From the UHGV virus genome UHGV-1773631: 18,342 bases of DNA; one strand, written 5' to 3'. The DNA comes from a virus. The translations under genes were made by a program, and so were the position numbers. Shown in pieces: positions 3,265 to 18,303 of the stretch. Each line of letters begins with the position of its first letter. Positions within the stretch are counted from its first letter, which is position 1. The notes beneath the pieces were generated by a model that was not told the origin of the DNA, searched no databases, and saw only the letters and a list, made by a program, of their open reading frames with translations.

Positions 3265-3296
3265 AAAAGTCAAGAGGAATTATCCTCTTGACTTTT
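3265..3296 (-). terminator. putative intrinsic terminator hairpin downstream of the Sak4-like gene
   Basis: Perfect inverted repeat AAAGTCAAGAGGA / TCCTCTTGACTTT (3266-3278 with 3283-3295), 4-nt loop, flanked by A/T runs on both sides (could act bidirectionally). Confidence 0.4.
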
Positions 3297-3312: not shown

Positions 3313-4284
3313 TTAATTCATTAAATCTTTCAAATCATGTACAATCAAATCCAACTGTTCAGACTGATCAGGAGTACATTCGCCGACTTTCTTACCCTTA
3401 CCCAAATACTTATCAGTAATTGCGGTAATCTTAACTGCATTTGTTTGATTGCTAGACATCAACTGTCCAACCAAATCCTGAAACTCATTCATCAAACCAT
3501 CAAAATCATATTCAGTATCCTTAGAAACAACCTGTGTGGGTTTATCTGTAATATACTGACCATTTGTTTGCTGAGACTGCTTATCAATAGCTTCAGCAAT
3601 AGCATTTACCAGATTATCATAACTGAAATTAATATAATCAGGAATATAAGCGAATCGACTACCTGCAACAAATCTAGGAGTACCTCTCATATACAAACGA
3701 GTTTTAACTCCATCTTCTGTATTCACAGCAGTAGAATAACCAATAATATCACAAGTTCTTTCACAAATCAAGCGGCCTCTCTTATCAAGAGTAGGAACAA
3801 TCTGATTAAATTCTGCTCCCGATTCATCCTTAAAGACTTTATCTGTGGCATGAGAAATAAGGACAAGACCATAATTTAGCTGTAAAATCTTTCTAATAGA
3901 TTCATCAAATTCATTGCCAACCATTGCATAGCCCTTACCATATGCAAGATCAGCAATTGTATCTACACCTTCACGACTACAGATATAACGCTCACAATAA
4001 CTATAAGCAATATCTGCTGTATCAATTACAATAGTTGAAAACTTTTCTTGTACTTCAGGATTTTTCAATTCCTGCAAAGTTTTCTTAAACTCACCCCAAG
4101 AATTAATTGGCTGGGCGTAAACACCAGGCAATGCATTATAACCTTTCTCGAAAGCTAACAAAAGTGAGCCTGGAAATCTAGAAGCAACTGTCGTCTTACC
4201 ACTCTTAGGTGCTCCGTAGAAAAGAACTGAGTATCCCCGCAAATCTCTTGAAACTTCATGCGGCTTAATATCAAGCAAACCCAT
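3313..4284 (-). CDS. Sak4-like (AAA_24 family) recombination ATPase
   Basis: 323 aa; Walker A GAPKSGKT near the N-terminus followed by the pattern typical of phage Sak4/RecA-like annealing ATPases, plus a C-terminal extension. Confidence 0.65.
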   Translation of the reverse strand: MGLLDIKPHEVSRDLRGYSVLFYGAPKSGKTTVASRFPGSLLLAFEKGYNALPGVYAQPINSWGEFKKTLQELKNPEVQEKFSTIVIDTADIAYSYCERYICSREGVDTIADLAYGKGYAMVGNEFDESIRKILQLNYGLVLISHATDKVFKDESGAEFNQIVPTLDKRGRLICERTCDIIGYSTAVNTEDGVKTRLYMRGTPRFVAGSRFAYIPDYINFSYDNLVNAIAEAIDKQSQQTNGQYITDKPTQVVSKDTEYDFDGLMNEFQDLVGQLMSSNQTNAVKITAITDKYLGKGKKVGECTPDQSEQLDLIVHDLKDLMN

Positions 4285-10266: not shown

Positions 10267-12147
10267 TTAATCAAAAGTAAAACCAAGCTCAGTAGCGTTT
10301 TCATAAATATATTGTTTGCGGGGTTCTACTTTAACTCCCATTAAAATTTCAAGTAATTCATCTGCTTTTTCTGCATCACTAATAGTAATTCTTTTATAGC
10401 GTTCTTGCTCAAAGCAGACTTTCTGAAGATCACGTGCATTTAACTCGCCCAAACCCTTCGCTCTTACTAGCTCATAAGTGCCTTGATGCTGAGTTTTCCA
10501 CTCTTCAAGTTCTTCATCAGTATAAGCATAGTATTCATTATTCTTCTGACGAATAATGTACAAAGGAGTAACTGCTCTATAAAGCTTTCCTGCTTCGACT
10601 AAAGGCCGCATATAAGTAAAAAAGAATGTAGTTAAAAGTAACTCAATACTAGCTCCATCAGAATCTGCATCCGAAGTAATTACGATTTTATCAAATTGCA
10701 TTTTATCTATATCAAAAGTTTTATCAAAACCTCCACCAATTACTTTAATAATATCGGAGATTTCTTGATTAGCAAGAATCTTTTCAACAGATTGTTTTCT
10801 AGGGCTAATAGTTTTGCCTTTTAACATATAAATACAATCTGTTTTGGGATTCCGTGCTTCAACGGCAGAAGATCCTGCGCTTAGACCCTCGACTAACAGT
10901 AAATTACGCTGGCTTGGATGTTTATTTGTGCAATCAATAAATTTATTACTTAAAGCAACTTTAGCTTTAAGACCAGTTTCTTTTTTGCCCTTATCTCTAA
11001 CAGCTTCTCTAGCTTTTCGAGCTGCTTCTCTAGCTTTTCGAGCATTAATCGCCTTATCCGCGATTTTCTTTATTTCTTTTTCATTTGCTTCAAACCAATA
11101 CTGTAATTCTTGTGCAATAATTCCTGCGAAAGGGTGCATATCAATTTTAACAATTCTACTTTTGGTCTGAGCGTCATAAGCTATACCAGGAGCGGTAATA
11201 TTAAACACTAAATATAATCCTTCTTGGCAATCATCACCGGATAAATTACTATCCTTTTCTTTCAGCCAACCTTTATCTCTAAAAAACTTATTCATTTCTC
11301 TTGTTAGAATAGTTTTAATTTGAGTAATGTGCGGGCCAGTGTCAGTAAGTCCTGTATTAACATAAGGAACAATAGTAGAAAAATATTTATCAGTATAAGT
11401 TAATACTAAATTTAATTCATTCTTATTATCTTTAAAATCAATTTTAAGTCTATTTTTAATAATTTCGCTATTTTTGTCTACAGTAGAATCAACCAAATCA
11501 GTTAATCCATTCTTAGAGAAAAAAGTTTTTTCATTTAAAGTAATAGTTAAACCTGGACATAAACAAACTAAAACTTCAAAAAGATTATTAATAATTTTTA
11601 AATCTACTTCTGGGTGAGTAAAAAATTCTTCACTCGCTTGCCAAGTAACAACAGTACCAGATTCTTTATCATTTTTTACTTTACCAGTTTTGCGGTTTTT
11701 GAAAATTCCTTCTTCAAAAGAAACTTCTTCAAAGTTTCCTTTTTGATAACTAAGTACCTTTGTCCAATGACTTAAAAATACAACTAACTTACTGCCGATT
11801 CCGTTTAGACCTAACGCGGTACCTTCATAAACACCATCTTCAGTATATTTACCAGAGGTGTTAAGCACACTAAAAGCAGCTTCAAGAATTGTTTTTCCAT
11901 CTTCTCTAGTGGAATTAATTAAAAAACCTTGCCCATTATCTTTAACTGTAATTACATTATTATCTGAAATAGTTACATTAATTTCAGTGCAATGACCTGC
12001 TTTAAACTCATCAACTGCATTAGAAACAATCTCAATTAATAGCTGAGTTGAATATTCAGTAGAACCAACATATACTCCAGGTCTAAGTCTTGTAAATTCT
12101 AACGGAGTAAGACTTTGAATTGAATCTTTATTATATAAATTATTCAC
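10267..12147 (-). CDS. type II DNA topoisomerase, B subunit (GyrB/ParE-like ATPase plus TOPRIM)
   Basis: 626 aa; LEFTRLRPGVYVGST, EIVSNAVDE and DNGQG (GHKL ATPase N-box/G1), TOPRIM-like EGLSAGSSAVEAR and ITSDADSDG. Contains a duplicated AREAARKAREAVR segment. Confidence 0.85.
   Translation of the reverse strand: MNNLYNKDSIQSLTPLEFTRLRPGVYVGSTEYSTQLLIEIVSNAVDEFKAGHCTEINVTISDNNVITVKDNGQGFLINSTREDGKTILEAAFSVLNTSGKYTEDGVYEGTALGLNGIGSKLVVFLSHWTKVLSYQKGNFEEVSFEEGIFKNRKTGKVKNDKESGTVVTWQASEEFFTHPEVDLKIINNLFEVLVCLCPGLTITLNEKTFFSKNGLTDLVDSTVDKNSEIIKNRLKIDFKDNKNELNLVLTYTDKYFSTIVPYVNTGLTDTGPHITQIKTILTREMNKFFRDKGWLKEKDSNLSGDDCQEGLYLVFNITAPGIAYDAQTKSRIVKIDMHPFAGIIAQELQYWFEANEKEIKKIADKAINARKAREAARKAREAVRDKGKKETGLKAKVALSNKFIDCTNKHPSQRNLLLVEGLSAGSSAVEARNPKTDCIYMLKGKTISPRKQSVEKILANQEISDIIKVIGGGFDKTFDIDKMQFDKIVITSDADSDGASIELLLTTFFFTYMRPLVEAGKLYRAVTPLYIIRQKNNEYYAYTDEELEEWKTQHQGTYELVRAKGLGELNARDLQKVCFEQERYKRITISDAEKADELLEILMGVKVEPRKQYIYENATELGFTFD
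10965..11006. repeat. tandem direct duplication (2 x about 21 bp) inside the topoisomerase B gene
   Basis: GCTTCTCTAGCTTTTCGAGC occurs at 10965-10984 and again at 10986-11005; in frame, it encodes the duplicated AREAARKAREA peptide. Confidence 0.6.
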
Positions 12148-12634
12148 CCAATACCTCCTTAACAGTCACTCTACCAGTAGCTAAATCATCAGCAAGTTCA
12201 TTGCCTTCAATACCAGCATGACCTTTAATTTTTCTTAAATCAATCTTTCTATTCCATTTATTATATATTATATCATAAAATTTTATTAAATCCAAATTTT
12301 CAGGAGTCGATTTATCTGCTTTCCGCCAATTATTATTTTTCCACCTGTACATCCAATCATTGAAAGTATTTACGCAATATAAAGAATCTGTATAAACAAT
12401 AGGATAAGTAAAAGAATCCGCTGAAACTCCATAGTTATACAAAGCCCAAAGAATAGCTTTCATTTCTTCTCTGTTATTTGTAGTTCCAATAGTTTGATGA
12501 GCAAAAGCATCTACTAAATGTAAATTTTTGGGGTCTTTAAGATACTTGTAAACAACTACTCCATAACCTCCAGAAGCATCTTTACTACCATTTTTTAAAG
12601 TTGAGCCATCAGTGTAAATAATAGTACCTATGAT
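12140..12634 (-). CDS. rnhA: ribonuclease H (RNase HI-like); start codon non-canonical or gene disrupted
   Basis: The track ORF 12140-12463 starts at an internal Met (MKAILWAL...GHAGIEGNELADDLA). The same frame is open upstream to a TAA at 12635-12637 and encodes the essential N-terminal motif (I)GTIIYTDGS...TNNREE. The only in-frame candidate starts near the RBS GGGAG (12641-12645) are ATC (12632-12634) and ATA (12629-12631). Confidence 0.65.
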   Translation of the reverse strand: MIGTIIYTDGSTLKNGSKDASGGYGVVVYKYLKDPKNLHLVDAFAHQTIGTTNNREEMKAILWALYNYGVSADSFTYPIVYTDSLYCVNTFNDWMYRWKNNNWRKADKSTPENLDLIKFYDIIYNKWNRKIDLRKIKGHAGIEGNELADDLATGRVTVKEVLGE

Positions 12635-12713
12635 TTAATTCTCCCTTCTTTGATTTTCTTAAATAAAAGTAGTATAATATTATTAATAAATCAATCTTTT
12701 ATTCTTTAATAAT

Positions 12714-12742
12714 ATTATATCATTTTTTTAAAAATAAAACAA
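12714..12742 (-). promoter_or_regulatory. putative promoter with extended -10 for the RNase H / topoisomerase / ligase unit
   Basis: Minus strand: TTGTTT (12742-12737), 17-nt spacer, TGATATAAT (12722-12714), immediately downstream of the strong terminator hairpin. Confidence 0.45.
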
Positions 12743-12747
12743 ATAAA

Positions 12748-12782
12748 GGGTTATAAACTCACCTTTGGTGAGTTTATAACCC
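12748..12782 (-). terminator. intrinsic terminator after the lysis genes
   Basis: Perfect 16-bp inverted repeat GGGTTATAAACTCACC / GGTGAGTTTATAACCC (12748-12763 with 12767-12782), 3-nt loop, followed on the minus strand by TTTATTTGTTTTATTTTT. Confidence 0.7.
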
Positions 12783-12791
12783 ATATAATCT

Positions 12792-13133
12792 TCAAATCGG
12801 TCCAAAAACGTCCGGTTCATCGGAAGAAGTGGGCGTTTGTGGCGTCAGATTATTCATCACAGTTTCATATTTTATGCCATTTTTAGTATTCTCACGAGTG
12901 GCTTTATTGTAATAAAAAGCTTGACTAACTGCATAAGCAGCCCAAGGTAAACTGGCTTCCGCAGCCAACCAAGGCAAAGAGCCAGTAAATCCTTCGTGAA
13001 TGCAATAAAATGCTAGAATAATATGAGCAAGAGAATGAACCCATATTAAAGCAGATTCTTGAGCTAAAAGGACTTTTGAAAATTCTTTTTTCTTTTTTCT
13101 TTTGTTTCTATTTTTTTTAACGAAGCTTATCAT
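12792..13133 (-). CDS. putative holin-like small membrane protein
   Basis: 113 aa; two hydrophobic helix-length segments (ALIWVHSLAHIILAFYCI and SLPWLAAEASLPWAAYAVSQAFYY), highly basic N-terminus, overlaps the 3' end of the endolysin gene by 17 nt. Assignment rests on position and topology only. Confidence 0.4.
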   Translation of the reverse strand: MISFVKKNRNKRKKKKEFSKVLLAQESALIWVHSLAHIILAFYCIHEGFTGSLPWLAAEASLPWAAYAVSQAFYYNKATRENTKNGIKYETVMNNLTPQTPTSSDEPDVFGPI

Positions 13134-13905
13134 ACAATCTCTTCATTATAGTGACGCCTTCTAGTCTGGTTAAAAACTTATTAGGCATTAATTTGCCAGT
13201 TTCGTCACCTTTAATTAGTCCCATAGAAACTGCCCAATTTAATTCATCTTTGCCCCAATCAGCATTTTGCTTAGCTAATTGAACTAAATAATTATTCATC
13301 ATTTCATTAAATTTTTCTTGAGTCATATCTTCATCCTCCTCTTGTTTAATTGTAGGTTTATTATTATTTGTTTTAGGTTTTTCAATTATAAAGTAATATT
13401 TTACCTGTTGTTTGAAAAGACTATAATTACCTCTAGTGCGTGCGGTTTTTGTGCTGTTAGGGTCATTAATATAAATAGTGTTTCCTTGAATATTCCACAC
13501 TAAAATGAAATGACCACTACTTGTCCATAATCCTTTGCCCATACAAGCTATAACTAAATTACCTTTATCAATTTCAGCTTTTGCTAAATTATGATATTTA
13601 CTAGAACTATTACCATAAATATTTGCACCATTCAACATATAGGCTGTTAAACCGTATCGTGCAGCAGCAGGCTTAAAATATCCATAATAAGTTCCTTGGT
13701 GAGGGGCTTTATAACCATGTGTTAAAGCCCAAGCACATTCAGTTTTTGGAGTAACTTTTTTATCTGCCCATGTAGCTAAAACCATAGACATTGCGGTGGG
13801 GCCACACCCAGAAGCGCCGATTGTAGTTGATTCACCTTTTGCTGAATAGCTAATATTTTTCCATCTTGCGTCTGTTTGTAGATAAGATACAGGCTGTGTA
13901 TTCAT
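13117..13905 (-). CDS. endolysin: papain-like cysteine peptidase (C39-like) with C-terminal SLH-like cell-wall-binding domain
   Basis: N-terminal half has a Cys...His pair in a C39-like context (GASGCGPTAMSMVL ... SGHFILVW); C-terminal WAVSMGLIKGDETGKLMPNKFLTRLEGVTIMKRL matches the SLH consensus. Start placed at the second ATG (13905; RBS AAAGGAGA about 7 nt upstream); the track ORF begins 6 nt earlier at 13911. Confidence 0.65.
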   Translation of the reverse strand: MNTQPVSYLQTDARWKNISYSAKGESTTIGASGCGPTAMSMVLATWADKKVTPKTECAWALTHGYKAPHQGTYYGYFKPAAARYGLTAYMLNGANIYGNSSSKYHNLAKAEIDKGNLVIACMGKGLWTSSGHFILVWNIQGNTIYINDPNSTKTARTRGNYSLFKQQVKYYFIIEKPKTNNNKPTIKQEEDEDMTQEKFNEMMNNYLVQLAKQNADWGKDELNWAVSMGLIKGDETGKLMPNKFLTRLEGVTIMKRLYDKLR

Positions 13906-13933
13906 ATACATTCTCCTTTCTTTTGTTTTAAAA

Positions 13934-13962
13934 AAAGAGCTAGGATTTTATCCTAGCTCTTT
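13934..13962 (-). terminator. putative intrinsic terminator between the PhoH-like gene and the endolysin
   Basis: 13-bp perfect inverted repeat AAAGAGCTAGGAT / ATCCTAGCTCTTT (13934-13946 with 13950-13962), followed on the minus strand by TTTTTT; T-rich on the plus side too. Confidence 0.6.
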
Positions 13963-13970
13963 GATTATTA

Positions 13971-15242
13971 TTAAATTAATTCTGCAAGTTCTGTTATTTT
14001 AGATCTATGGATATTATTTAAAGTTACTTCTCCATAAATATCAGAACCTCTAAAAATTTTAGACATTCTTCTCATACCATTGTTATTACCAGAATAAGCT
14101 AATGAGTCAACTTGCGTTTTAGCATCACCATCAATAATACAAATACAATCTTCACCAATACGTTGAAGAGCTAATTTAATTAAAGTTCTATCTAAATTTT
14201 GTGCTTCTGTTATATAAATACCTGCGTTCATTCCGCTAGTATCGTAACCTCTAATATCGCTAAAAGGCAATAAAACTAATTTATCTTCTTCCATCATACG
14301 AAGAACACCTTCTTTACCGCCTAATTTGGCGGAAAGCATATTACCAATTTGCGAGTCAAGTAATTTATCGTCTTTTGTACCTGGGTAAAACCCTAATTTA
14401 GCGGAATTAATAGTTGCCACTGTATTACAAAAGATTATAATTTTATCTATTCTATTTTTTTCTAACATATACATTAAAAAAGCTAGAGAAATGTAAGATT
14501 TTCCTACTCCTGCTGGGCCTTGTAGCAAAGTAATTTTATTATTAGCTAAACTATCAAAAGCGCATTTTTGATATATATCTCCTTGATATGGTTGTACTTT
14601 TCCAAACCAGGTAGAATCAAAAGTAGGAAATTTTAAATAACGATAAGTTTCTCCTGTCCAAACCCGCACATCTATAAGTTCATCAAAATTATCAGGATTT
14701 TTTAAAAGTAGATATTCTCCTTTTTTAAGATTAAAATGATTATAGTTAGGATTTTCATAAAATTCAGAAATTAATTCTTCACTAGCAGTAATTTCTGCAA
14801 TTCCACTATAAGTATCTAAATCTTCTTCAATAGAAGAAACATTTTCTTTGGGAAACAAACATAAAGCAATATGTTTTAAACTTAAATCATTAGTTATAAA
14901 TTCTAAACATTTATTTGTTTCAAATTCATTCCAAGCATCAGACAAAATTCTAGCATCATCATTAATATCAAAATTCATTTTATCTAAAATGTATTCATAA
15001 TTTGTTTGATGAATTTTAACAGAATAATTATTTGGATATTTTTCAAATAAATGAAGCAAAAGTCTTGCGGAATATTTTATATCAGAATCTTTATTTGCCG
15101 CAGTTTTAATTCTTTCTAACTCTTTTAAAGTAATAGAAGAAATGATAAATTTTTCATTATCTTCAAAAGCTGATTCTCCGGCTAATAAAAGACTACAAGT
15201 ATCGTAGAATTTAATAATAATTTCCACTCTCCTATTGTTCAA
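13971..15242 (-). CDS. PIN-domain / PhoH-like ATPase fusion (PhoH2-like)
   Basis: 423 aa; N-terminal PIN-like acidic motif (IIKFYDTCSLLLAG), Walker A LLQGPAGVGKSY, PhoH-type IIDGDAKTQVD and NNIHRSKITELAE. Confidence 0.8.
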   Translation of the reverse strand: MNNRRVEIIIKFYDTCSLLLAGESAFEDNEKFIISSITLKELERIKTAANKDSDIKYSARLLLHLFEKYPNNYSVKIHQTNYEYILDKMNFDINDDARILSDAWNEFETNKCLEFITNDLSLKHIALCLFPKENVSSIEEDLDTYSGIAEITASEELISEFYENPNYNHFNLKKGEYLLLKNPDNFDELIDVRVWTGETYRYLKFPTFDSTWFGKVQPYQGDIYQKCAFDSLANNKITLLQGPAGVGKSYISLAFLMYMLEKNRIDKIIIFCNTVATINSAKLGFYPGTKDDKLLDSQIGNMLSAKLGGKEGVLRMMEEDKLVLLPFSDIRGYDTSGMNAGIYITEAQNLDRTLIKLALQRIGEDCICIIDGDAKTQVDSLAYSGNNNGMRRMSKIFRGSDIYGEVTLNNIHRSKITELAELI

Positions 15243-15693
15243 ATAAGATAAAATAATAATTATTTATGGCCTTTCTTTGTCTTTTTAGAGAAGTAATTAC
15301 TTTACTTTGAGCTTTTAAATATGTATTTAATTCTTTTTCTTCTGTTTTAATATAACCCAAATATTTATTAATTTGCCGTTTTAACCTTACTATTTCTTTA
15401 ATGACAATGATATACTCACATTTTTTATTTTCTCTTAAAATATCGTTATAAAATCTTTTTACAGCGTTATATTCGATATTAGTTTTTTCTTTAATATCTT
15501 TTAAAGCATTAATAATTGCTCTTTTGTGAGCTATTGTTTGACCTACTTTGGTTGAGAAAAAGTCCATATCATCAGAATGACAAGTAGCAATCCCAGTATA
15601 GTATTTTCGTTCATAATAAATTATTGCCTCAATTGAATTATTTGTGTAATTAAATTCTACGGGTAAAAGATTAATTGTTTTTCTTAGACTCAT
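15232..15693 (-). CDS. hypothetical protein (153 aa)
   Basis: ORF from the track with RBS AGGAGAA and a promoter upstream; overlaps the PhoH2-like start by 11 nt (probably translationally coupled). No motif recognised. Confidence 0.4.
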   Translation of the reverse strand: MSLRKTINLLPVEFNYTNNSIEAIIYYERKYYTGIATCHSDDMDFFSTKVGQTIAHKRAIINALKDIKEKTNIEYNAVKRFYNDILRENKKCEYIIVIKEIVRLKRQINKYLGYIKTEEKELNTYLKAQSKVITSLKRQRKAINNYYFILFEQ

Positions 15694-15723
15694 TAAAATT
15701 CTCCTATCTTATTTTATATTATA

Positions 15724-15752
15724 ATTATATCATAAATTCTGAGAAAAATAAA
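15724..15752 (-). promoter_or_regulatory. putative promoter with extended -10 for the ORF 15232 / PhoH2 unit
   Basis: Minus strand: TTTATT (15752-15747), 17-nt spacer, TGATATAAT (15732-15724), about 30 nt upstream of the ATG at 15693. Confidence 0.4.
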
Positions 15753-15780
15753 ATTCTTGATATTTGCGTAAAAAATTGCT

Positions 15781-15857
15781 AGAGGCGCGAAAATTCGGCG
15801 ACACGGGCCGCCACGAATATGCACGAAGACCCTAGAGTAAAAGCACTCTAGGGTCTT
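15781..15857. other. GC-rich intergenic island ending in a strong stem-loop (terminator-like or structured RNA)
   Basis: About 55 bp of roughly 60% GC (GAGGCGCGAAAATTCGGCGACACGGGCCGCCACG...) in an otherwise AT-rich region, then a perfect 13-bp inverted repeat AAGACCCTAGAGT / ACTCTAGGGTCTT (15826-15838 with 15845-15857, loop AAAAGC). The T-rich tract follows the hairpin on the plus strand, opposite to the genes. Confidence 0.4.
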
Positions 15858-15861
15858 TAAT

Positions 15862-16407
15862 TTATTGTTTAATTTTGTTTTTAATATCCTTAATAATTGA
15901 ATCAATAGAAACAGGAAAATTATTATGAGCATCCAATTCTACATGATAAATAAGACCTTTATCCCAATCCGCAAAAGCGTCCTGACTATGAGAGTGTCCG
16001 CACATACTAATCATTCTTGCTTTAAGAGGTTTCTCATTATCAAAATTACTACAAAGTGTAGGATAATGGCTTAAATAAAAATGATATTTACCATATCTTA
16101 GAAATTGACCTTCAGTTACTTTAATAATATTGTTACAATTATTATATAAATTTACACGAACTTCACTATCATGGTTTCCTCTAATTACATAAATTTGTCC
16201 TTTTAACTGTTTAATTTTTTCAATTCCTGCTTCATTATCATTTAGCATTAAATCGCCAAGCACATAAATTTTATCATTAGGACGAATAATTTTATTCCAA
16301 TTTTCAATAATTGCGTTATCATGTTCTTGAATATTCTTAAACCCTCTTGGTTCATAAAGAAAGGGCTTATTATGGCCTAGATGAAGATCACTGGTAAACC
16401 AAACCAT
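15862..16407 (-). CDS. calcineurin-like metallophosphoesterase
   Basis: 181 aa; metal-binding motifs DLHLGH, VLGD, RGNHD and GHSH characteristic of binuclear metallophosphoesterases; begins 2 nt after the stop of the upstream kinase gene. Confidence 0.75.
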   Translation of the reverse strand: MVWFTSDLHLGHNKPFLYEPRGFKNIQEHDNAIIENWNKIIRPNDKIYVLGDLMLNDNEAGIEKIKQLKGQIYVIRGNHDSEVRVNLYNNCNNIIKVTEGQFLRYGKYHFYLSHYPTLCSNFDNEKPLKARMISMCGHSHSQDAFADWDKGLIYHVELDAHNNFPVSIDSIIKDIKNKIKQ

Positions 16408-16409
16408 TA

Positions 16410-16922
16410 TTACACCTCCTCAGTATAATGTAAAATAGTATTCACATTATGAAAACCCCAATCAAGATATTTATTCATCTCATCTTTAGAAGGAATAGAA
16501 GATTTAAAATAAAAATTTTTTATTGCTTCTTCTGGAACTTTAGCGAAACCTTCTCTTTCAGAATTTCTTCTTAAAGCAACATCTAAAAGAATAGGAAAAT
16601 AATCAAAAGTAAGATTAATATTATTCTTATCTTTCAGATTAAAAAAATTGTTTAAAAGTTTAGCTCTTGAAGAAACATCAATATGAGTTGCATCTATATA
16701 AATATTTTCTACATTTTCTTTAATTGCAATTCTAATATTTGCAATCATTTCTTTATATACCTGTTTTTCTTTACTAAAATAATTTTTTCCAGGATTTTCG
16801 CCTATATAATTCTTGCGGATTTCATCTCTTGAAATAATTTTACCATTCTGTTGTTTTGCCCAAGTAGATTTGCCGGAAGCAGGAATACCACAAAGAATAT
16901 GCAAATTAATCATAAATACCAA
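16410..16922 (-). CDS. P-loop kinase, polynucleotide kinase (T4 Pnk)-like
   Basis: 170 aa; Walker A GIPASGKSTWA followed by SRDEIR, paralleling T4 Pnk kinase GCPGSGKSTWA ... NRDDYR. Confidence 0.6.
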   Translation of the reverse strand: MVFMINLHILCGIPASGKSTWAKQQNGKIISRDEIRKNYIGENPGKNYFSKEKQVYKEMIANIRIAIKENVENIYIDATHIDVSSRAKLLNNFFNLKDKNNINLTFDYFPILLDVALRRNSEREGFAKVPEEAIKNFYFKSSIPSKDEMNKYLDWGFHNVNTILHYTEEV

Positions 16923-17199
16923 ACTCCTTTACATAAGAAATACTATTTTGTGCTTCTTCTTTAAAAAGACCTTCTTCAAAATCTAGTTTAAAATTATATG
17001 CTTCTTCATCGTTTCTACATTCTACCATATTAACAGTTTCTTTACAATGAGGGCAATACATAACTTTCTTATGCCCAACTTCTCTAAAACGTCCTCTTAA
17101 TCGAGGAATTGACATTGACTTCTTTCCGCAATTCATACAATAAAAATCGTGCATTTCATATTTTCTAGGGTCTTTAGACATTTTTATCAAACTCCTCAA
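16906..17199 (-). CDS. hypothetical zinc-ribbon protein
   Basis: 97 aa; two CxxC pairs (CMNCGKK ... CPHCKE). Function unknown. Confidence 0.4.
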   Translation of the reverse strand: MRSLIKMSKDPRKYEMHDFYCMNCGKKSMSIPRLRGRFREVGHKKVMYCPHCKETVNMVECRNDEEAYNFKLDFEEGLFKEEAQNSISYVKEFGIYD

Positions 17200-17578
17200 T
17201 TTGTTTTTTTACAATTTCAAAATATTCTTTAAGTTCTTTTCTTTCTTTTTCTGTATTTATTTTTTTAATTTCTGTCTTTTTCCAAATTTTATATTTTAAC
17301 ATTTCTACATAATTTGTAAAAATAATACGTATATTATTGTCTGTTAAATATTTTCGTGTAGAGAAAGGCTTTGAAAAAACAACCGAATATTTTTGTAGTT
17401 CATAATTTTCTGGACTTAAATTATAGAAAGAAATAAATTCTTTTAATTTTAAAACTACATATTTATGTTTCCTTACAATTTTACAATCTAGTTTATATTC
17501 ATCATAATCATATATAAAACAACCTAAAATTATTACTCCAGTAAAAGGTAATGTTAATCCTAGTATTAATAGTACCAT
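17174..17578 (-). CDS. hypothetical membrane protein
   Basis: 134 aa; N-terminal hydrophobic segment MVLLILGLTLPFTGVIILGCFIY, then a Lys/Glu-rich soluble region. Confidence 0.4.
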   Translation of the reverse strand: MVLLILGLTLPFTGVIILGCFIYDYDEYKLDCKIVRKHKYVVLKLKEFISFYNLSPENYELQKYSVVFSKPFSTRKYLTDNNIRIIFTNYVEMLKYKIWKKTEIKKINTEKERKELKEYFEIVKKQIEEFDKNV

Positions 17579-17580
17579 AA

Positions 17581-18303
17581 TTATTCTCCTTGAGCAGAAA
17601 AGATATGTTCATCAAAAGTATCTAAATCAAAAAGGATAATTTGCTTACTCCAATGAGTACCTAAATCAAGATTAACCTTTTGATTATTATTATACCAACA
17701 AGCTCCACCTTCATATTTGGGAGGATTGCGAAATTCTCCTATATCTTCTATCATTAGAGGAATTGGGGTATGGCCATGAATAATTAATTCATTTGGATTA
17801 ATTAAACATCTAAATTTATAATGTAATCTATTCCAAAGAAAATCAAATTCATCACCAGAAATATTATTAGGAGAAAAACCTGCATGACTTAAATGAATTT
17901 TAATTCCATTTTTATTAGTGTATTGTTCATAAACTGGAAGTTTATTAATTAAATTTAAATACTCAATAACATTTTTTTCTTTAGACCAGTCTAGTAAAGT
18001 AGATAAACCTCCATTATTCATGTGACGATAAATATCATCTCCATATAGACATCTTTCATTTTTTAAAAATTCTCTTCCAGAATCTACTAACATTTGTTCA
18101 TGATTTCCTTTAAGAAGAGTAAATCTTTCATCTTTTAAAATTTCTTTAAGTATTTTCCAACCTTCTGTCCCTCTGTCAATTACATCACCCAGCACGAACA
18201 CTTTATCTTCTGCTTGAATGAAATTTTTAATCTGCTTAAACAAATTTGAATTACCATGAAGGTCAGTAAAACAATAAACTTTACCCTTATTCATAAACAT
18301 CAA
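17581..18303 (-). CDS. Ser/Thr protein phosphatase, PPP family (lambda phosphatase-like)
   Basis: 240 aa; canonical PPP motifs in order: DLHG (CFTDLHGN), GDVIDRG, GNHE. RBS AAAGGAA upstream. Confidence 0.8.
   Translation of the reverse strand: MMFMNKGKVYCFTDLHGNSNLFKQIKNFIQAEDKVFVLGDVIDRGTEGWKILKEILKDERFTLLKGNHEQMLVDSGREFLKNERCLYGDDIYRHMNNGGLSTLLDWSKEKNVIEYLNLINKLPVYEQYTNKNGIKIHLSHAGFSPNNISGDEFDFLWNRLHYKFRCLINPNELIIHGHTPIPLMIEDIGEFRNPPKYEGGACWYNNNQKVNLDLGTHWSKQIILFDLDTFDEHIFSAQGE

Follow-up and report, generated by a model that had tools for sequence, protein, structure and literature searches.

A conserved GC-rich island with a perfect hairpin at a possible boundary between two co-directional transcription units of a Herelleviridae-like phage

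The stretch of phage DNA that was analysed (18,342 nt; hereafter the window) has a GC content of 30% and carries every sizeable ORF on the minus strand. Judged by its genes, it is the part of a large virulent Firmicute phage that is devoted to replication and nucleotide metabolism. It includes genes for a DnaB-like helicase, an AAA_24 ATPase, ThyX, an ATP-dependent ligase, the B and A subunits of a topoisomerase II/gyrase-like enzyme, an RNase H, a C39-like peptidase with an SLH domain, a PhoH-like protein, an AAA_33 kinase and two metallophosphoesterases. The source is a Herelleviridae-like metagenomic phage of ~138 kb, and a 137.7-kb contig of IMG/VR is 94-98% identical to the window. No close cultured phage was found when the window was compared with 50,697 phage records in near and distant BLAST searches; the best matches of the phosphoesterase discussed below among cultured-phage proteins come from Kayvirus (Herelleviridae), at 34% identity.

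The feature under study lies in an intergenic spacer of 168 bp (15694-15861) that separates two minus-strand genes. On its upstream side ends a tightly packed minus-strand cluster (17581-18303, 17174-17578, 16906-17199, 16410-16922 and 15862-16407 in the ORF list), the final member of which encodes the phosphoesterase of 181 amino acids (15862-16407, minus; Pfam Metallophos_2, 4e-9; phrog_547, 5e-42). The downstream unit starts with a gene for a protein of 153 amino acids (15232-15693, minus, from the ORF list) and continues with the PhoH-like gene (13971-15242, minus), after which a canonical terminator is found (13934-13962). For the 153-aa protein 256 relatives were found, and its AlphaFold model is confident, with no significant match among solved structures. 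The start of the gene could be read from the sequence, with a ribosome-binding site AGGAGAA (15705-15699) and an ATG (15693-15691), both on the minus strand. Ahead of these a consensus scan identified a putative sigma-A-type promoter on the minus strand (15718-15745; 10/12 matches), composed of a -35 element TTCTCA (15745-15740), a 16-nt spacer and a -10 element TATAAT (15723-15718), with an overlapping and near-consensus extended -10 sequence, TGATATAAT, at 15732-15724. The promoter sequence is similar to other intergenic promoter regions in the window (repeat families D1/D2), and promoter, leader and ribosome-binding site together are nearly unchanged across relatives (6/74 sites variable).

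Between the phosphoesterase gene and this promoter three segments can be discerned. The first is a perfect 13-bp stem-loop with a loop of 6 nt (15826-15857; arms AAGACCCTAGAGT and ACTCTAGGGTCTT), which on the minus strand follows the phosphoesterase stop codon at a distance of 4 nt. The second is a variable linker of 19 nt (15807-15825; minus-strand sequence CGTGCATATTCGTGGCGGC), the length of which is constant among relatives. The third is a near-invariant block of 39 nt (15768-15806; minus-strand sequence CCGTGTCGCC[G/A]AATTTTCGCGCCTCTAGCAATTTTTTAC). Overlapping the 5' arm of the hairpin there is a GC island of 55 nt (15779-15833), which has 60% GC. The GC maximum of the whole window is a 40-nt stretch that starts at 15776 and reaches 65%, against a mean of 30% with a standard deviation of 9%, and this segment is likewise the GC maximum over 12.9 kb of a related genome. 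An earlier sequence-only reading of this DNA had pointed to a stretch of about 55 bp with about 60% GC and to a perfect 13-bp hairpin between the phosphoesterase gene and the next promoter, and both were confirmed.

To see how often such features arise by chance, the window was randomised 100 times with a first-order Markov model. A perfect stem of at least 13 bp appeared in 3 of these and a 40-nt window with at least 65% GC in 5, which makes the stem and the GC window, each taken alone, just moderately unusual. Nevertheless, the GC patch and the hairpin form a real, conserved and clade-specific feature, because the stem and the GC-rich stretch are adjacent, intergenic and conserved in 15 related contigs from independent samples (L001/L007/L008, L009, L012, L013, L014, L015 and L016, and further L018, L019, L023, L024, L027, L029 and L030). 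As grounds for refutation the sequence-only reading had named, next to a lack of transcript ends or small RNA, a lack of conservation of the island and its structure in related genomes; conservation was found, with a linker GC content of 58% in the window and of 37% in L018.

The hairpin can be extended to 14 pairs via an extra G-U, on either strand, and has a free energy of about -22 kcal/mol on both strands (-22.2 on the sense, i.e. minus, strand). This stability is comparable to that of the five canonical terminator hairpins in the window (-17.5 to -24.1 kcal/mol). Among the relatives it is the structure of the hairpin, not its sequence, that is conserved. In L012 stem pairs 3 and 4 are swapped, from G-C/A-U to A-U/G-C, which represents double compensatory changes, and in L018 and L019 the loop-proximal pair has changed from U-A to C-G, with the U.G intermediate present in L001, L012, L027 and L029. 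In addition, L023 and L018 each show one change of a G-C or A-U pair to G.U within the stem. Analysis with RNAalifold supported a conserved structure for this hairpin alone, and no second conserved helix was found on either strand in folds and alignments of the variants. The check by RNA folding and covariance across relatives that had been proposed earlier gave compensatory changes in the hairpin and no further conserved helix. The broader suggestion of a structured RNA element was not borne out, considering that nothing is conserved beyond the one hairpin on either strand and that there is no Rfam family.

The question on which strand the hairpin acts is less simple. The sequence-only reading had it oriented against the gene flow, on account of the T-rich tract that follows the hairpin on the plus strand while the genes are on the minus strand. 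The sequence is as was described: 3' of the hairpin the plus strand reads TAATTTATTGTTT, which the consensus scan scored as a plus-strand terminator, and the hairpin was not reported as a terminator on the minus strand, so that the plus strand alone qualifies. The sense-strand tail, CGUGCAUAUU, is without a U-run, the sole U residues being the UCUU at the base of the stem; in relatives the corresponding tail reads UUUCGU (L012) or UUUUCG (L023). The orientation itself could not be upheld. The window contains six perfect hairpins of at least 12 bp, and all six are located 4-16 nt past a minus-strand stop codon. The other five are found 8-16 nt after the stops and all have a sense-strand U-tract, unlike the hairpin at 15826-15857. 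The plus-strand T-tract is for the most part the reverse complement of the spacer sequence ATTAAA, the TAA stop and the Lys/Asn/Ile-rich last codons of the phosphoesterase gene (KNKIKQ*). In fact, at all six hairpins the initial 10 nt of the plus-strand tail contain 4-6 T, and the tail UAAUUUAUUG, which passes the scan, has a U content no higher than the plus-strand tails of the others. The T-tract is therefore no independent sign of orientation, because it is derived from coding sequence (stop plus Lys/Asn codons).

The substitutions within the stem also bear on the strand. A transition in a Watson-Crick pair gives a G.U on one strand and an A.C on the other. Four of the five one-sided stem changes keep pairing in the sense RNA alone and one, that of L018/L019, keeps it in the plus-strand RNA alone (P = 0.19), which means that the wobble asymmetry toward the sense strand is not significant. 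Read on the sense strand, the path from U-A via U.G to C-G follows the classical RNA route. By its position, the hairpin belongs with the set of sense-strand terminators of the phage.

A quite unlikely alternative is that the hairpin does serve the plus strand, either by stopping stray antisense transcription or as part of a small RNA of ~90-135 nt that runs against the gene flow. In such an RNA the block would provide a single-stranded seed at the 5' end, with the linker as spacer and the hairpin together with UUUAAUUUAUU as intrinsic terminator, and the RNA would act by base pairing with phage or host mRNAs. A conserved 5' part, a variable middle and a terminator that is conserved in structure is the typical layout of a trans-acting small RNA, the plus strand passes the terminator scan, and phage K of the Herelleviridae makes intergenic small RNAs from either strand (PMC9241854). 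The stem change in L018/L019 is a G-U on the plus strand only. A possible further helix (AUUCG/CGAAU) tolerates three changes as wobbles, but is broken in these same two relatives. The other four of the five one-sided stem changes disrupt plus-strand pairing, and the T-tract is accounted for by the stop codon and the Lys/Asn codons. Moreover, within 120 nt upstream no conserved sigma-A-type promoter was found on the plus strand, by the scan and by comparison with the relatives: the candidate hexamers TTGATA and GATATT of the window are altered to TTGGTA and GGTATT in all relatives. A promoter of a phage-specific type is possible. When the block was paired with 21 initiation regions of the window the best plus-strand value was -13.3 kcal/mol, as compared to a mean of -18.0 for shuffled sequences. 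The earlier proposal of a bidirectional or antisense terminator stands in so far as the hairpin is terminator-like and structurally conserved, and fails for a strictly bidirectional one, given the sense tail CGUGCAUAUU.

The linker and the block differ markedly in their conservation, as became clear when the spacer was aligned on the sense strand and the variable sites were counted among nine variants. Within the linker 9 of the 19 sites are variable and all changes but one are transitions, whereas only 1 of the 39 sites of the block varies, with one more change in L029. For comparison, over its initial 100 codons the adjacent gene has 26/100 variable third-codon positions and 46/300 variable positions overall, and the block is more conserved than either (P = 1.2e-4 for third positions, P = 0.012 for all positions). 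For block and promoter together 7/113 sites are variable (P = 0.0025). These numbers point to purifying selection on the block. The conservation may, however, partly reflect recent exchange rather than selection, because the carriers of the element are all close relatives and the region is mosaic. The mosaicism is most evident in L018, in which the cassette and the downstream gene have ~95% identity to the window, while the kinase and phosphoesterase genes are mostly at ~60%. The identity amounts to 93-100% from 15784 to about 15300, and the main mosaic junction is located near 16085, with a gradual rise and away from the island.

With respect to the downstream promoter, the block occupies the region ~35-90 nt ahead of where transcription would start, and the T-tracts (AATTTT motifs) of block and promoter region recur at a spacing of 18, 22 and 17 nt. 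The window contains no second copy of the block, and its k-mers are absent near the other promoters (18 kb). A covariance model (R1) recovered no diverged copy in 113 kb of related loci.

The block could also act at the level of the sense RNA, although we consider this unlikely. It is C-rich in that RNA, with an anti-Shine-Dalgarno-like CCUCU and a U6, and would function in transcripts that extend past a leaky hairpin. There it could be a signal for processing or antitermination, a further terminator, or a small RNA that derives from the 3' UTR and has its end at the U6 (15771-15776). The substitutions in the hairpin lean toward the sense-strand RNA, the invariance of the block reaches through AAUUUUUUAC, and 39 contiguous invariant nucleotides suit sequence-specific RNA contacts better than a typical operator. 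The linker can form a helix with CGCGCCUCUA, in which 92% of the cells are paired and three G-U/A-U alternations occur; yet this helix is without double-sided covariation and is broken by the change in L029, and between 32 and 175 of 500 shuffles reach each of the observed measures. The minimum-free-energy folds vary among the variants, the U6 is 4 nt away from any stem, and there is no Rfam match. As regards targets, 24.5% of the shuffles equal or beat the best target duplex in the window, and neither strand of the block was more complementary to the window's 21 initiation regions than random or shuffled sequences.

Irrespective of the strand, it seems unlikely that hairpin, linker and block together encode a small RNA of the phage, be it a plus-strand transcript (~90-135 nt) or a 3'-UTR-derived sense RNA. 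Such an RNA would have an invariant GC-rich segment of 36-39 nt as the seed or protein-binding platform by which host or phage genes are controlled, and it would be without a Rfam family and restricted to a single clade of uncultured Herelleviridae-like phages. Since phage K of the Herelleviridae makes intergenic small RNAs of its own (PMC9241854), the idea is not far-fetched.

The searches for known elements covered several sources. The window gave no match to Rfam at gathering thresholds, and the region 15650-15950 nothing credible at E values up to 10; the best sub-threshold match had 27.7 bits against a threshold of 60 and was generic and terminator-like. ARAGORN identified no tRNA or tmRNA. 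Scans for exact patterns in IMG/VR, metagenomes and 185,579 genomes returned the same phage clade and two chance matches only. In the latter, a 21-mer from the block is matched exactly in Proteobacteria with 62-65% GC, without flanking similarity, and the number of these matches is about that expected by chance for 185,579 genomes.

In the course of the analysis several other candidates were considered and rejected. A second hairpin predicted by RNAfold (15796-15813, followed by AAUUUU) is destroyed in L001, L012, L014 and L018. Pairing of CUAGAG with CUCUAG, between a hairpin arm and the block, could in principle serve as an antiterminator, but amounts to 6 bp only, versus the 13-bp stem. An ORF for 72 amino acids that runs across the island (15714-15932) has lost its start in L012 and L014 and is interrupted by a stop in L001, and the linker changes within it are mostly non-synonymous; a plus-strand ORF of 10 codons inside the hairpin lacks a ribosome-binding site. 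A role as stimulator of frameshifting or read-through was dismissed as there is no conserved slippery site at the right distance. Finally, comparison with the consensus of the CodY box, Spo0A box and boxA showed partial matches only, and the CGAA core is lost in L018.

The genomic context in more distant relatives is informative with respect to the nature of the cassette. In L002 and L005 the gene of the 153-aa family starts ~0-30 nt from the phosphoesterase stop; the cassette is absent and the genes abut. In L025, L026 and L020/L021 other small genes directly follow the phosphoesterase gene. In L017 a canonical sense-strand terminator comes after the phosphoesterase gene, with PhoH next, and in L022 a canonical sense-strand terminator and a promoter-like site precede the gene of the 153-aa family. 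Because the genes abut in L002 and L005, the cassette splits what is elsewhere one unit, and in this clade it holds the place of an ordinary junction of terminator and promoter. A lineage-specific acquisition of the element is possible, because it is absent from distant relatives with abutting genes.

Such an acquisition connects to the last alternative, which we regard as very unlikely, namely that the island is a site or remnant at the level of the DNA that is unrelated to transcription: a foreign, GC-richer piece, a recombination junction, a target of a nuclease or recombinase, or a palindrome bound by a protein. The composition is foreign to a genome with 30% GC, distant relatives with abutting genes lack the cassette, mosaicism among the relatives affects the region, and the linker of L018 appears to decay toward A+T while the block is held. 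There is traffic of homing endonucleases nearby, with a LAGLIDADG insertion in the PhoH gene of L001 and L014. No donor could be identified, however: the island produced only noise (E = 4) in the 50,697 phage records, the 21-mer of the block had chance-level matches only in the 185,579 genomes, IMG/VR yielded a single contig, and there is no tRNA. In addition, the island is without flanking direct repeats and without a second copy, the main mosaic junction of L018 is not at the island, and the path from U-A via U.G to C-G in the stem is the signature of an RNA rather than of a DNA palindrome. The idea of a foreign remnant, att site or nuclease site that was put forward in the sequence-only reading accordingly loses its att part, as neither a tRNA nor a host match was found (ARAGORN gave none, and the two 21-mer matches in 185,579 genomes are at chance level), and keeps the possibility of acquisition, in view of the absence in distant relatives.

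Considering all of the above, the most likely reading, to which we give about even chances, is that the island is an ordinary boundary at which one transcription unit of a large virulent phage ends and another with the same direction starts. The hairpin would form in the sense (minus-strand) RNA, 4 nt past the phosphoesterase stop, and would end or protect the 3' end of the upstream transcript. We infer that it is probably a sub-optimal, factor-assisted and partly leaky intrinsic terminator, in which weak A-U pairs at the base of the stem would stand in for a proper U-tract. The 19-nt linker may be an unconstrained spacer, and the 39-nt block would act in cis on the strong extended -10 promoter downstream, most likely as an upstream site at the level of the DNA, that is, a site bound by a regulator of phage or host and/or a set of phased T-tracts that aid RNA polymerase. 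Observed are the anatomy of the cassette, its pattern of conservation, the upkeep of the stem by compensatory changes and the lack of the cassette in more distant relatives; that the hairpin terminates transcription, on which strand it acts and what the block does are inferred. In support of a boundary, the hairpin is found where the packed cluster (18303-15862) stops and the promoter and ribosome-binding site start. Against it speak the sense tail CGUGCAUAUU, which lacks a U-run, and the fact that the motif of the block is not repeated upstream of the other promoters (18 kb). The role of the block as a promoter-upstream DNA element is the simplest reading, but one to be held loosely, since an uninterrupted run of 36-39 invariant nucleotides is long for a site that binds a protein.

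If the island is indeed a boundary, little changes, as it would be a routine junction of terminator and promoter, with two oddities: a sense hairpin without a U-tract and an unusually invariant GC-rich block upstream of the promoter. The case does imply a caution for sequence-only scans in AT-rich phages, since a T-tract on the non-coding strand may mirror a stop codon and Lys/Asn codons. In case the block is an RNA or the site of a phage regulator, it would provide a handle on the switch from early to middle transcription in uncultured large Firmicute phages.

The locus can be compared with several known systems. GC-rich intergenic islands have been used to find structured RNAs in AT-rich genomes (the GC-IGR approach of the Breaker laboratory). 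As in that approach, the highest-GC segment of this AT-rich genome is intergenic; it has, however, only one conserved helix, and lacks a multi-stem fold supported by covariation and a Rfam family. UP elements and curved DNA with phased A/T-tracts are known from the region upstream of strong early promoters of SPO1/SP82-type phages. Here too the conserved segment adjoins a near-consensus extended -10 promoter and the AATTTT motifs are about two helical turns apart, but the segments between the T-tracts are GC-rich and invariant and curvature alone needs neither. Like bidirectional terminators, the locus has a perfect hairpin that is symmetric, and the A-rich sequence 5' of it on the sense strand (AAUUAAAG) forms the U-rich tail on the other strand. 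It differs from them in that the 3' flank on the sense strand is GC-rich and the two directions are not equivalent, and in that there are no plus-strand genes or conserved plus-strand promoters nearby that need such a terminator.

Phage K of the Herelleviridae produces intergenic small non-coding RNAs (snc002-snc007), which were identified by stranded RNA-seq; some of these are opposite to the flanking genes and their function is not known (Finstrlova et al. 2022, PMC9241854). The present locus is likewise short, intergenic and part of a large virulent Firmicute phage. There is no sequence similarity to these RNAs, and in phage K the region around the homologous phosphoesterase is not syntenic. 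In comparison with Firmicute intrinsic terminators, the other five hairpins of the window are canonical, whereas the sense strand offers only UCUU here, followed by CGUGC. In B. subtilis, most intrinsic terminators are aided by NusA or NusG, and those that depend on NusG have weak terminal A-U/G-U pairs at the base of the stem and interrupted U-tracts (Mandell et al. 2021, PMC8060035). Because of these weak terminal pairs and interrupted tracts, a sub-optimal, leaky terminator on the sense strand is plausible for the phage, by analogy. As in the terminators assisted by NusA/NusG (PMC8060035), a stable GC-rich stem-loop closes a gene cluster, a few nucleotides past a stop codon, with weak A-U pairs at the base of the stem (AAGA/UCUU), an interrupted tract, and a stem that is maintained by compensatory changes.

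Comparison of the region 13400-17213 with L018, a related metagenomic phage contig carrying the same island spacer, revealed a sharply mosaic pattern. Identity was 92-98% at 17213-16860, dropped to ~45-65% at 16860-16085, rose to 82-90% by 15875 and reached 93-100% at 15784-15305, beyond which it was lower again. The pattern indicates recent recombination among related phages inside the gene cluster. Upstream of the island, the minus-strand cluster 15862-18303 comprises genes for a NinI-like phosphatase, for an AAA_33 protein resembling polynucleotide kinases and for a Metallophos_2 phosphoesterase, along with two genes for small proteins of unknown function. A gene for an RNA ligase is found just upstream of the corresponding cluster in relatives (L012 1-124; the more distant L022 1-611). 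Taken as a whole, this set of genes resembles an RNA (tRNA) repair module.

The PhoH-like gene (13971-15242, minus strand) carries an insertion of ~1.3 kb in several close relatives (L001 5059-6352, L014 5076-6341, and L015), the insertion point corresponding to ~14389 in the window; the gene of the window itself and those of L012, L018 and L023 are without it. The inserted DNA codes for a 314-aa protein with a faint match to LAGLIDADG_3, and the insertion cuts the PhoH-like gene into parts of 284 and 142 aa. It is therefore probably an intron or a homing-endonuclease insertion. The top plus-strand promoter-like match in the window (14414-14441; TTGCCA, 16 nt, TATAAT; 11/12) lies antisense within the same gene, 25 bp from the point at which the LAGLIDADG element is inserted in relatives. 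It may be a chance match, since promoter-like matches overall showed no excess (109 observed versus 100.5 expected from shuffles).

None of the codons ATG, GTG and TTG is present at the start of the minus-strand RNase H gene (12143-12634; PF00075, E = 1e-26, match from residue 4). Its reading frame opens with ATC ATA GGT after an in-frame TAA, and a Shine-Dalgarno-like stretch (GAAGGGAGAA) is found seven nt upstream; the start codon appears to be ATC or ATA. In the mechanical ORF list the protein is shortened to 107 aa (12140-12463). Upstream of the gene, an AT-rich inverted repeat of 64 nt (12631-12761; 70% complementary, 3-nt spacer) covers the terminator, promoter and leader. At another boundary, the 3' arm of the terminator hairpin that follows gene 3313-4284 (3265-3296) holds the -35 hexamer of the next promoter, TTGACT, so that terminator and promoter physically overlap, whereas ~80 nt separate promoter and hairpin at 15745-15826.

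The fusion of a Peptidase_C39_2 and an S-layer-homology (SLH) domain (13117-13911, minus strand) provides a clue to the phage's host: the protein is probably a cell-wall hydrolase for a host with SLH-anchoring wall polymers.

The minus-strand gene 15232-15693 encodes a 153-aa protein with 256 relatives at E < 1e-3, belonging to a family of ~140-160-aa proteins for which no Pfam or PHROG annotation was found and in which the motif G..A.CHP.D.DF.S.KVG..IA..RA is conserved. The AlphaFold model is very confident (pLDDT 96) and predicts a fold that opens with a short helix at the N-terminus and continues with three strands, another short helix and a long two-helix hairpin. None of the solved structures matched this model at E < 1e-3; it bears a weak likeness to dsRNA-binding domains and to Rv1738.
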